The notes under the pieces are model-generated. The model was not told where the DNA came from, did not search any database, and saw only the letters and a list, made by a program, of their open reading frames with translations. Positions 14,828 through 19,855 of a stretch of DNA of 64,000 bases are shown piece by piece. Source of the DNA: Escherichia coli (lineage in GTDB: Bacteria > Pseudomonadota > Gammaproteobacteria > Enterobacterales > Enterobacteriaceae); assembly GCF_030384885.1 (NCBI RefSeq), contig NZ_CP128613.1; one strand, given 5' to 3'. Made by a program: the position numbers and the translations under genes. How positions within the stretch are numbered: the first letter of the stretch is position 1; every line of letters starts with the position of its first letter.

Positions 14828-17800
14828 TTACCACTGAATACCGGCACCGAGTGCGGCGGAGTATTCACCCTGGCTATTGGTACTACCTTGTAATTTGTAG
14901 ACCCAACGACCATTGGCGCTCACCATCGACACACCTAAAGCAACAGCCGATTCGCCGTTGTAAGTACCACCACCAATAGAGGCCATGCTGGCTCCCGGCG
15001 TGTAAGCCTGCGGCAGACCGGTCATTGCCATTGCGGAAGCGATACCACCGCTCAACTTGCTTTCGGTTTTGGACAGTTTGTTATCCATCTCAACCATGCG
15101 CTGATCGGTGTATTGCTTCGTTTCCTGCACACTTTGCTTCAACTGTGCATAGTTCACTGCGTCGTTGTTGTTCACGCCCGCAGAAACGTTGCTGATGCGA
15201 GTCGTACCGCCATTGCCGCCACCGAGAGTGATGTTGCTGTAGTCGATAGAGCCATCAGCTTTGGTGTCGTAGCGAACGCCACCTGCTTCGGAAGACTTCA
15301 GTTGCGAAACGTTAACCGCATCAGTGGCATTAACACCGGCAGCAACGTTGGTGATACGGCGCTGGTTGGTAGAAGAACCCACAGAGATTGTGTTTTCTTC
15401 GTTGGCCACGGAGCCTGTACCCAGAGCGACGCTGTTGTCAGCGGCAGCAATGGATCCAGAACCAATCGCCACACTGTCTTTACCCTGGGCGTTAGCATCT
15501 ACGCCATCGGTGTTGGTCTTGAAGTACTTGGTGCTACCTGTGGTTACGATATCGCCAATACCGTTCTCGATATTGGTCACGCGAGTATCCAGATTCGTCA
15601 CCTGATTGTTCAGGTTAGTAATGCTCTGGGTATTCTGGGAAACCTGCGCATCCGTTACTTTCAATTGACCCACGTTGACCGCATCGGTATCAGCCGAACC
15701 AGCCGCGACGTTGGTGATCTGACGTTGACCGTCTTCGCTACCTACGGAGAATTCACCCACAGAGTTCTGCGGTGCATCCATGTTGTAGGCGGTGTAGCCA
15801 GTTTGTGCGCCACGGGTAGTTTGAGAACCATTACCCATTGCAATGCTGTTTGCATGGTTTGCACGCGCGTTGCTACCGATAGCAATACCGTTAATCGCAT
15901 CTGCCAGAACTAAAGTGTTCAGGCCGATACCAATACCTGCATTACCATTAACGATGGTTTTTGCGCCCATTGCCAGCGAGTCTTCACCGACTGCCAGTGA
16001 GCCTTCAGCCGTTGAATTGGCGTGATAGTATTTGGTCGGCGTGGTGGCTACTGCACCAATCGCATTCTGCAACTGGCGAACCGTAACGGCATCATGGGCT
16101 TCAGAACCATCGGCAACATTGATGATTTGACGATATTTACCATCGTCACCGATCGACAATGCGCCAAGCAGTTCACCGTCAGTTGTGTCATAACCAATCA
16201 CAACACCTTCTTCCGACACGCTGGTGTCACGAGAACCTTTAACTATTACACGGCTGGAAACGGAACTGCTACCCAACGCAATACTCGTATCAACGATGCT
16301 GCTGCTGCCCTGACCGATGGCCACGCTGCTATCGCCTTTGGCAACAGAGTTATAACCCACAGCAGTAGAGCCAATGCCTGCTGCGCTGGCATCGGTGAAG
16401 GTTAAACCAGTGTCATTGGTACGCACATAGTTAATGCCCGCACCGTTTTCTTCGATGTAGGTTTCGCTAGTGTTACCGGCAAGCTGATTGATGACTTCGC
16501 TGTTCTGCTGGATCAGCATATTGGTGTTAAACAGCTGAGAACCGTTGATAGCATCGGTGCTACCTTCACCAATGTTACCATCAGCAACGTTTGTGATAAT
16601 GCTGGCCTTGCCGTCATGACTGGCGTTGTAAGCCCCTTCGCCGTTATTGGCGGTCGCATCCCACAGCAGCGCGTTCTCATCAAGCGCATCCAGAGCGTCA
16701 CCGACATTGTTGTACTCGGCATTCGCAATGGTGTAAGTCGGCGCAGTGATAGTACCGTCAGCGTTAACTTCTGCATCACCGCCCAGAGCATCAGCGATAT
16801 ATTTGTTAGTGGTATAGAGTTGTGAGCCGTTAATCGCGTCGCTGCTGGTGGCAGAGATTGCACCATTTGCGACGTTAGTAATCTTACTGGCAGTGTTATC
16901 TACCCCACGACCGGCGCTGAATGCACCAGCACCGTCATTGGCTGTTGCATCCCAGAGCAGGGCGTCATCCAGCGTGGTATCGATCGCTTCCAGTGCGTCA
17001 CCAACGTTGCTGTAACTGCCGCCAGCGATGGCATAAGTCGGTGCGGTGATACTGCCATCCGCATTCACCACAGCGTTCCCGCCCAGAGCATCGGCAATGT
17101 AGTCACTAACGCCATAAAGCTGTGAACCGTTAATAGCGTCACTACTGGTGGACGAGACTGCACCGTTTGCAATATCAGTGATTACACTGGGATCATTATT
17201 AATGCCGTGTTTGGCGCTGAATTTGCCTGCGGTTGTATCCCAGAGCAGAGCATCACCGAGAGAATCACTAAATGAAGTGTTAATCGCAGCCAGAGCATCC
17301 CCGACGTTAGTGTAGTCAGTGCCGCCAATACTATAGGTTGGCCCGGTTAATACACCTGTATCGCTAATATCAGCACCACCACCCAGATAGGACGTGAATG
17401 AATCAGCCAAACCGTAAAGTTGTGAGCCATTTATGGCGTCAGTGCTGTCAGAGGAGACTATGCCAGCTTGTACGTTGCTGATTTTGTTGGTGGCGTTGGT
17501 GCCGTGTGCAGCGGTGAATGCGCCTGCGGCATCGTCCCATTTCAGGGCGTCTTCACCGAGGTTAGTCACCGTATCAGTCAGGTTAGTGATATTGGTGGTG
17601 TTAGTCGCCACGTTATCGTTAGTGGTTTTCAGCTGAGAACCGTTAACGGCGTCGGTGCTGGTGTCAGAGAGTTCGCCAGCGGTGACATTGGTGATTTTGT
17701 TGGTGGCGTTGGTGCCGTGTGCAGCGGTGAATGCGCCTGCGGCGTCGTCCCATTTCAGGGCGTCTTCACTAAGGTCAGTCACCGTATCAGTCAGATTAGT

Positions 17801-19855
17801 GATATTGGTGGTGTTAGTCGCCACGTTATCGTTAGTGGTTTTCAGCTGAGAACCGTTAACGGCGTCGGTGCTGGTGGCTGAAAGGTCGCCAGCGGTGACG
17901 TTAGTGATTTTGCTGGTGGCGTTGGTGCCGTGTGCAGCGGTGAATGCGCCTGCGGCGTCGTCCCATTTCAGGGCGTCTTCACTAAGGTCAGTCACCGTAT
18001 CAGTCAGGTTAGTGATATTGGTGGTGTTAGTCGCCACGTTATCGTTAGTGGTTTTCAGCTGAGAACCGTTAACGGCGTCGGTGCTGGTGTCAGAGAGTTC
18101 GCCAGCGGTGACATTGGTGATTTTGTTGGTGGCGTTGGTGCCGTGTGCAGCGGTGAATGCGCCTGCGGCGTCGTCCCATTTCAGGGCGTCTTCACTAAGG
18201 TCAGTCACCGTATCAGTCAGGTTAGTGATATTGGTGGTGTTAGTCGCCACGTTATCGTTAGTGGTTTTCAGCTGAGAACCGTTAACGGCGTCGGTGCTGG
18301 TGGCTGAAAGGTCGCCAGCGGTGACGTTAGTGATTTTGCTGGTGGCATTTGTACCATGTGCCGCACTATATCCCTTTTTAAGGTTGTCCCATTGTATCGT
18401 ATTCGTGTTTAGATCCGCTAAGGCGTCGCCAACATTGCCATAAATACCATTTTTCAGTCTGTAATTCGGGGAAGTCACAACGCCCTGCGAATTGACGGTC
18501 GCTCCTCCACCAAGATTATCCGCTACTGACTTACTAATAGCATAAAGCTGTGATCCATTGATGGCATCAGTACTGTCAGTGTCGATATCACCTTTTGCCA
18601 TATTGACAATTTTTCGCTGAGCTGTTGTGTTACCCACGGAGACAGTATCCGCTTCAGTCGCGACAGAATCAGCACCCAGAGCAACTGAATTTTTCCCCTG
18701 AGCACTGGCTTGAGCACCAATTGCAGTACCATTTTCTAAACCGGCATAACTGCCTTGTCCAAGAGCAATGGCATTTGCCCCACCGGTAATACTCCCATTT
18801 CCCAGCGCGATAGCATTTGCGCCGTCAGCTTTATTCCCTTGACCGATGGCAATTGTGCCAGCTGCTATTGCCTGACTTTGACTGCCCAGAGCAATCGTGT
18901 TGTCGGCATCGGCAATACTCCCGGAACCCAACGCGATACTATTAAGCCCATTTGCTTTCGCATCAGTACCCACTGCCGTTGCATTTTCAGCGGCTTTGGT
19001 CTTAGAGCCCATCGCGATGGAGTCTTTACCGGCTGCATCACTGTTATATCCCAGCGCAATACTGTCTTCACCAGTAGCTTTACTTTCTGACCCCATTGCC
19101 AGACTGTACCATCCGAAGGCTTTAGCTTTATAACCAATGGCTGAGGAAAAGAAGTTGGCTTCTGTTTCTGCTCCCATAGCCATGGAACCTGTATTCTCTG
19201 CCTTAGCTTTTCTACCTAATGCGAGACTGTCTTCACCACTAGCAGCACTCTCACTACCTGTGGCAATGGAGTTAGTTCCTGATGCTTTGGCCAATCGCCC
19301 TAATGCAAGGGCATTCGCAGCACTTGCTACCGTATCCTTGCCCAACGCCATGGCACCTTCAGCTGTAGCTTGTGCAGAATTCCCCAGTGCAAGGGTATAA
19401 TCGCTGGTCGCTTTAGCCGCACTGCCGATGGCGATTGAGCGGCTACCCGTGGAAACCGTTGATTGCCCTAAGGCGACCGATCTTTCTCCTGAGGAATTAC
19501 TCGAGAAGCCAATTGCAGTACTCCCCACTCCGGCATTAGCTCTTGCCCCGACAGCAACACTCCCTGTACCCGTTGTGCCTGTACCCATTGTATCTGATGA
19601 GGCGACGGCCTCTTTACCAATAGCAATCCAGTTATCACTCAGTGGCGTTTCGCCTGCAATTTCTTCTGCGCTTTTACCACCGTCAAGTGAAACCGAAGCA
19701 TAGGCTCCAACTGATGAGAGTAACCCACCGGCAACTAGCGCAGAAATTAACAGCTTACTGCGCCCGCTCTTTTTCCCACGACTCTTAGCCGTTTCGCTGG
19801 CAACGGTGTAACTGCCCGTCGCTGGATTCCAGATAACTTTAAAAATTTTGTTCAT
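14828..19855 (-). CDS. Trimeric autotransporter adhesin (YadA-like head repeats, repetitive stalk, YadA-type membrane anchor); UpaG/EhaG/SadA-like
   Basis: 1675 aa; extended autotransporter signal peptide ([21 protein letters not shown]...[19 protein letters not shown]); many SxAxG head repeats ([20 protein letters not shown]...); C-terminal anchor ending ...[23 protein letters not shown]. Confidence 0.85.
17400..18330. repeat. In-frame tandem coding repeats inside the adhesin stalk (213-bp unit, about 4.4 copies)
   Basis: Identical spurious plus-strand ORFs recur in the track at 17655 and 18081, with near-identical copies at 17433 and 17868; the encoded 71-aa unit KITNVTAG[DE]LS[AD][58 protein letters not shown] is repeated four times, with copies 1/3 and 2/4 pairwise identical (a 426-bp super-unit). 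Confidence 0.8.

Follow-up and report, generated by a model that had tools for sequence, protein, structure and literature searches.

Whole-module copy-number variation in the stalk of a predicted trimeric autotransporter adhesin at the SadA/UpaG/EhaG locus of Escherichia coli

The 64,000-nucleotide (nt) stretch of Escherichia coli DNA analysed here (the window; contig NZ_CP128613.1) encodes on its minus strand a predicted trimeric autotransporter adhesin of 1,675 amino acids (aa), whose stalk holds a tandem array of 213-nt units. Comparison with nearly identical genomes indicates that these near-identical stalk modules change in number, in frame, probably by misaligned recombination; the latest event in the window lineage was probably a contraction. 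The adhesin gene, its array and the gene directly upstream are laid out as follows.

14828..19855, minus strand: predicted trimeric autotransporter adhesin gene at the SadA/UpaG/EhaG locus, stop codon included (open reading frame (ORF) with its translation, and Pfam; 1,675 aa)
19712..19855, minus strand: ESPR-type extended signal peptide, aa 1-48 (Pfam PF13018, E = 1.8e-15)
17462..18364, minus strand: tandem array of four full 213-nt units and a 51-nt partial fifth, 4.24 copies (Tandem Repeats Finder, lag-213 comparison and unit parsing)
18152..18364, minus strand: unit 1 (u1), A-type (S9, D18, A21), aa 498-568
17939..18151, minus strand: unit 2 (u2), B-type (N9, E18, D21), aa 569-639
17726..17938, minus strand: unit 3 (u3), A-type, aa 640-710
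17513..17725, minus strand: unit 4 (u4), B-type with an N55/G57 tail, aa 711-781
16526..17461, minus strand: three older diverged modules of 95-100 aa each (direct-repeat families, 62-81% DNA identity)
14831..15013, minus strand: YadA-like C-terminal membrane anchor, aa 1615-1675 (Pfam PF03895, E = 5.4e-19, above the curated cut-off)
19899..20582, minus strand: sadB-like lipoprotein gene, a 227-aa ORF (DNA identical to that annotated in relatives as WP_000023347.1)

The translated adhesin matches one protein record exactly (WP_289787408.1 / WJS55750.1), which RefSeq/PGAP names a “YadA-like family protein” and not UpaG. Its passenger gives 17 YadA_head and 13 YadA_stalk matches in Pfam, both far above cut-off, and a motif count finds 12 neck and 7 DALL-like motifs. 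The YadA-like anchor, the head/neck/coiled-coil passenger and the ESPR signal peptide are the sequence features of type Vc proteins. By its domain content the ORF is accordingly read as a trimeric autotransporter adhesin, predicted to form a homotrimer on the cell surface. An NCBIfam scan of the protein returned no match to a specific UpaG/EhaG model, and other models for this class of adhesin matched only below threshold.

The original prediction, made from the DNA letters alone, described about four near-perfect, in-frame copies of a 213-base-pair (bp), 71-aa unit in the stalk of an adhesin, and this description stands. Tandem Repeats Finder reports a single array (17475-18361; period 213, 4.2 copies, 95% matches, 0 indels, score 1606). 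The unit of 71 codons is a multiple of three and runs in the frame of the minus-strand ORF, which the Pfam head, stalk, anchor and ESPR matches mark as an adhesin. The interval proposed for the repeats, 17400-18330, pointed to a real array but missed its bounds by about 35-60 nt; when the coding strand is compared with itself at lag 213, the repeated tract falls at gene nt 1492-2394, or 17462-18364 in the window. Copies 1 and 3, and copies 2 and 4, had also been called pairwise identical. The underlying A-B-A-B order is real, with 97.7% identity at lag 426 vs 95.0% at lag 213, but the identity is not complete: units 1 and 3 are the same at the protein level over all 71 aa and differ at 6 nt, all synonymous, and units 2 and 4 differ at 4 nt, including two amino acid changes (D55N and S57G).

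Five of the six differences between units 1 and 3 lie within the first 18 nt, where unit 1 carries five silent differences from all other units that mark the edge of the array. Units 1 and 2 differ at 12 nt (5.6%; nine silent and three replacement codon changes), and variation over all units affects 17 of 213 positions, 12 of them silently. The partial fifth copy, of about 51 nt, merges into the next diverged module. The three older modules have an added FGG-like “LGGxA” insert and DALLWD/NALLWD motifs, at a motif spacing of 100, 100 and 95 aa. The central stalk can be read from these repeats as a series of homologous modules, four of which appear to have been recently homogenised or amplified.

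Within each unit of 71 aa there is a single neck motif (ITNV...TDAVNGSQL), a polar coiled coil of about four heptads and a single DALL-type connector (EDALKWD). Searched with phmmer, the unit aligns to solved SadA fragments (2YO2, E = 4.6e-26; 2YNZ, 4.2e-21; also 3ZMF and 2YNY; overall to 2e-12) and to Acinetobacter AtaA (3WPA). Of these entries, 2YNZ, together with 2YO3, is a reference structure for DALL, an alpha-to-beta connector, according to a review (PMC7247746), in which 2YO2, 2YNZ and 3ZMF (all aligned at E = 1e-15 or better) figure as DALL/neck structures. By homology to the solved fragments, one unit would correspond to one neck, coiled-coil and DALL-connector stalk module. A short “AAHG” string in the unit was considered as a HANS connector and rejected; the protein has its true HANS motifs at aa 1278 and 1334, and the connector of the unit itself is of the DALL type (DALKWD). 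Published dimensions (YadA, 422 aa and about 23 nm; BadA, 3,082 aa and about 240 nm) allow a rough scaling (PMC7247746), on which a 71-aa module would add very roughly 4-5.5 nm, and fibres of four and eight units would differ by some 15-20 nm.

The genes around the adhesin are, in order, lldP, adhesin, lipoprotein, yibL, yibT, mtlR, mtlD and mtlA, as annotated in sequence-identical relatives. The lipoprotein gene lies upstream, 43 nt from the adhesin start codon. Its designation as sadB-like comes from the RefSeq annotation of relatives, in which the identical protein, WP_000023347.1, is labelled “DUF3251” or “SadB/YajI family lipoprotein”; Pfam and NCBIfam scans of the window ORF gave no match despite these labels. 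The gene is presumed from its position to be an operon partner of the adhesin. It also holds a weak 42-nt tandem repeat (20385-20484, about 2.1 copies, 74-77% matches) that is probably insignificant.

The same arrangement has been described for sadBA, which sits between the mtl and lld operons with the lipoprotein gene directly upstream and a gap of 44 bp in Salmonella, and which is deleted in K-12 (PMC3953254). UpaG, EhaG and SadA are described as positional orthologues (PMC7247748), and B2 strains such as Nissle have an upaG-annotated gene at this position. The window adhesin shares with them the chromosomal position flanked by the lld and mtl operons, the sadB-like neighbour, and the domain repertoire of ESPR, YadA head repeats, neck/DALL/FGG stalk modules and YadA anchor. 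Homology is seen by direct sequence comparison with upaG and through the solved fragments for SadA. Position, neighbour and homology together assign the window adhesin to this orthologue group as far as sequence can. UpaG and EhaG are reported to mediate extracellular matrix adhesion, autoaggregation and biofilm formation (PMC7247748).

The locus is highly polymorphic. In a whole-gene search the top-ranked matches reach 97% identity in two genomes, and identity to most E. coli alleles is about 85%. This ranking does not make the window atypical for E. coli: near-identical genomes rank low in such a search, in which overlapping repeat pieces are left unjoined, and were recovered by a search with the flank. 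Over the 8 kb to the right of the adhesin gene, eleven complete E. coli genomes are 100% identical to the window. Two kinds of insertion were observed at the locus in other strains. In N96 and RMDEC465 an IS621 (IS110-like) transposase gene (8150-9130 at both loci) separates the adhesin gene from lldP, and ISEc35 interrupts the adhesin gene in lineage 23AR0303, leaving two annotated fragments.

Used alone as a query, a single unit is found in 1-8 copies per genome across E. coli, and among genomes with a close version of it counts of 2, 3, 4, 5, 6 and 8 are all present. The arrays of other alleles sit at the same place in the gene, with periods of 213, 234, 249 and 255 nt (71, 78, 83 and 85 aa).

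2020CK-00188: 213 nt x 4.1
N96: 213 nt x 4.2 and 255 nt x 2.6 (locus L015, 3861-5251)
RMDEC465: 249 nt x 2.5 (locus L016, 4515-5149)
2017-02-2CC: 255 nt x 5.5
Nissle upaG (1,778 aa): 234 nt x 4.6 and 213 nt x 2.6

Stalk-array positions were recorded as well for locus L014 (6989-8163) and locus L017 (3750-5149). The periods of 71, 78 and 85 aa step by seven residues, which suggests a size difference of whole coiled-coil heptads between modules. Alleles that are otherwise divergent can also share identical units, as with an N96 unit that matches unit 2 of the window exactly. Such sharing suggests a common pool of stalk modules shuffled by recombination.

The closest view of copy-number change comes from the window and the eleven complete genomes with identical flanks, a near-clonal set of 12 alleles. 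Over about 15 kb outside the array, each of the eleven genomes shows 2-4 differences from the window, and within the 4,176 nt of the adhesin gene outside the array they carry 0-2 single-nucleotide polymorphisms (SNPs). Their arrays differ in length by exact numbers of units.

Window: 4 units, u1 u2 u3 u4; gene of 5,028 nt, 1,675 aa
Ten genomes: 5 units, u5 u6 u7 u8 u9; gene of 5,241 nt, 1,746 aa
2013C-4282: 8 units, u1 u2 u3 u10 u6 u7 u8 u9; gene of 5,880 nt, 1,959 aa

The steps from the window allele are one and four units, and all 12 ORFs are intact and in frame. Since near-clonal alleles carry 4, 5 or 8 in-frame units, stalk length must differ between the predicted adhesins of these strains. 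This agrees with the proposal that the repeats expand and contract and thereby alter stalk length, and the comparison of copy number among related isolates suggested for it gives counts that are not fixed. One identical array is common to the ten 5-unit isolates, which originate from Colombia, China, Laos, Viet Nam, Switzerland and Ecuador. Among the 12 genomes, 2 structural array events compare with 6 distinct SNPs in the flank of about 15 kb.

The variation is thus best read as an occasional length polymorphism and not as on/off switching or phase variation: no allele leaves the reading frame, and the identical array in isolates from several countries implies a modest rate. The label of a length-variation hotspot given to the repeats is therefore apt only in part. 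Length does vary, but ten isolates keep one array, and the A and B units differ by 5.6%, mostly silently, so the repeats appear neither very young nor rapidly switching.

The unit order of the three arrays allows their relationship to be reconstructed. All in-register single deletions, duplications and inter-allelic crossovers among the 4-, 5- and 8-unit arrays were simulated exhaustively. One 4-unit (852-nt) deletion from the 8-unit array yields the window array base for base, with a breakpoint at array nt 678-692, which falls between positions 39 and 54 within units 4 and 8. One 3-unit deletion, with a breakpoint at positions 62-194 of units 1 and 4, yields the 5-unit array base for base. 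The junction units bear the corresponding marks: u4 of the window is an exact chimera of the head of u10 (unit 4) and the tail of u9 (unit 8) of the 2013C-4282 allele, and u5 of the 5-unit allele is a chimera of u1 and u10. Unit 2 of the window is identical to unit 2 of the 8-unit allele. No single step in the simulation leads from 4 to 5, 5 to 4, 4 to 8 or 5 to 8 units, and no crossover between the 4- and 5-unit arrays yields 8.

17673..17686, minus strand: inferred crossover interval of the 852-nt contraction, 14 nt between the markers at unit positions 39 and 54 (from the simulation)

Because only single deletions from the 8-unit array reproduce both shorter arrays, the parsimonious history would be an 8-unit ancestor that contracted twice, independently. 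The latest event in the window lineage would then most likely be the 4-unit contraction. This runs counter to the original prediction, which took pairwise identity of the copies to imply a recent duplication of a 426-bp block. No single duplication links the alleles, and one 852-nt deletion accounts for the window array. A 426-bp duplication may nevertheless have occurred as an older event, with the A-B-A-B head (u1 u2 u3 u10) already present in the 8-unit allele.

Tandem repeats in E. coli are unstable through RecA-dependent unequal exchange between sister chromatids and through RecA-independent template switching at the replication fork. Either route could act here. Long identical stretches of DNA between units would permit misaligned homologous pairing, which would occasionally delete or add whole units. 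Since the unit length is divisible by three and the unit makes up one whole structural module, each product would be an intact adhesin, longer or shorter by 71 aa per chain for every unit.

Several points weigh against this account. The crossover interval of the 8-to-4 event spans only 14 nt, which is short for a simple reciprocal exchange and may point to a more complicated history or to an intermediate that escaped sampling. The 8-unit state is known from a single assembly, that of 2013C-4282, and the constancy of the 5-unit array across countries speaks for a modest rate of change. The exact 4-unit allele was found in no other genome among 5,426 complete genomes searched. A longer array collapsed during assembly would, moreover, look the same as a real in-register deletion.

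This last point underlies the most serious alternative, namely that the source genome truly carries 5 or 8 units and the assembler reduced them to 4. The near-identical 213-nt units are longer than short-read k-mers, and, reasoning from the haplotypes, the chimeric unit 4 can be spelled by k-mers of less than about 120 nt from the 8-unit array. The uniqueness of the 4-unit allele to the window record would also follow. A precedent exists in BadA, in which Sanger sequencing missed two repeated four-domain motifs that only long reads brought to light (PMC8859334). However, the adhesin lies within a 4.74-Mb contig of a chromosome-level assembly, in which the array is crossed without a contig break. 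Two private SNPs show that the window comes from a strain of its own, rather than from a renewed assembly of one already sampled. The other length difference of the window, at rhsC, has only microhomology at its junction and is therefore no repeat collapse. A collapsed array is thus unlikely, and copy-number variation at the locus holds even with the window set aside: 5 vs 8 units in the near-clonal genomes, and 1-8 across E. coli lineages.

The length variants could instead have been imported as alleles by horizontal homologous recombination, with no expansion or contraction in situ. Import has some appeal at a locus where gene-wide identity to most genomes is only about 85% and where identical units in divergent alleles imply that stalk modules are exchanged between strains. 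Yet across their 4,176 nt, the parts of the gene flanking the array show only 0-2 SNPs when the 4-, 5- and 8-unit alleles are compared. The arrays have unit haplotypes in common, arranged in the same order, and removing a single in-register block from the 8-unit array gives each of the shorter ones. An import would need both of its ends inside the array and would still have to give the result of a single deletion, which makes this origin very improbable.

In simple-sequence-repeat contingency loci, units of 1-9 nt alter the reading frame or the spacing of a promoter with high frequency. The stalk array resembles them as a site of repeat-mediated reversible mutation in a surface-protein gene, and its place in a surface adhesin, with its repeat structure, recalls loci under diversifying pressure. 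Phase-variation-like mechanisms have been suggested by the authors of the BadA study (PMC8859334). A programmed high-frequency locus, generating phase or antigenic variation within a culture or infection, is nonetheless hardly credible here: the unit is 213 nt long and a multiple of three, 12 of 12 alleles are in frame where short repeats would shift it, ten independent isolates from several countries keep an identical array, and the annotated neighbourhood of the adhesin in the eleven relatives shows neither a dedicated recombinase nor an invertible element. Chance is no serious explanation for four units of 213 nt at 92-98% identity.

Change in module number by misaligned recombination within the gene also fits what is known of related adhesins. 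The reference upaG has tandem arrays at the same place as the window adhesin. The two differ in sequence and unit composition: the array region is about 77% identical to upaG-annotated genes by megablast, and the near-clonal alleles have a 213-nt unit in 4-8 copies as opposed to the two Nissle arrays, of 234 and 213 nt. In BadA of Bartonella henselae, the number of stalk modules differs between strains by recombination while heads and anchors are conserved. Its stalk comprises 18-34 domains among B. henselae strains, a range attributed to recombination and under-counted without long reads, and parts of the same report describe fibre length, seen by electron microscopy, as following gene length (PMC8859334). 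DALL motifs occur in the stalk modules of BadA, its fibronectin binding accumulates over the repeated stalk motifs, a DALL motif included, and its serum reactivity scales with construct length (PMC9602544).

The window array fits this type of variation in its near-identical tandem modules, its conserved flanks with differing counts and its chimeric junction units. BadA differs in being much larger and in lying in an island where pseudogene copies act as partners for recombination, whereas the window adhesin has only the units within one gene. In addition, the DALL peptide of BadA implicated in binding (RHEKSKLEKGASKAI) has no evident similarity to the DALKWD segment of the window unit.

A length-variable stalk is known behaviour of trimeric autotransporters at a known locus, and the window offers a well-resolved instance of it, with no new mechanism. 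In one allele, the stalk would gain or lose complete 71-aa modules within the time that a clone takes to spread. Typing of UpaG-family adhesins from short-read genomes is common, and with a stalk that changes in this way, gene lengths and “allele” calls obtained at the locus from short reads are unreliable. Adhesins of the UpaG family have come under discussion as antigens for vaccines (PMC7247748), and such antigens should be designed so as not to depend on the amplified modules.

The 4-, 5- and 8-unit strains form a natural, nearly isogenic series that could be used to study the effects of stalk length on adhesion, autoaggregation and shielding by lipopolysaccharide (LPS). The function of SadA is reported to be masked by large surface structures, LPS and fimbriae (PMC7247748). 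By analogy, module copy number might act as an adaptive tuning knob, setting how far the head projects past the O-antigen or capsule, or, in line with what has been proposed for the repeated stalk motifs of BadA, how many cumulative matrix- and antibody-binding sites are displayed. This is a speculative and rather doubtful idea; if it were true, lineages with different surface polysaccharides or hosts would select different copy numbers.

Two further length differences were observed at rhs loci of the window. The rhsC core ORF (30774-32915, minus strand) encodes 713 aa, as compared with 1,397 aa in ten near-clonal relatives, through an in-frame internal deletion of 2,052 nt that leaves the same start and stop. 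The deletion junction, near 32713-32721, shows only the short microhomology CCGG[T/G]CAGG. Two direct repeats of 1,048 nt (29359-30406 and 31226-32273), 98.7% identical and 1,867 nt apart, derive from an rhs core and a downstream orphan rhs fragment. The segment between these repeats, which contains ybfB and the orphan fragment, is missing from Ec73552 and 2013C-4282; in both, one fused “RHS element core protein” lies beside the Imm57 immunity gene. The loss of this segment appears, from the sequence comparison, to be a second repeat-mediated rearrangement segregating in the near-clonal set.

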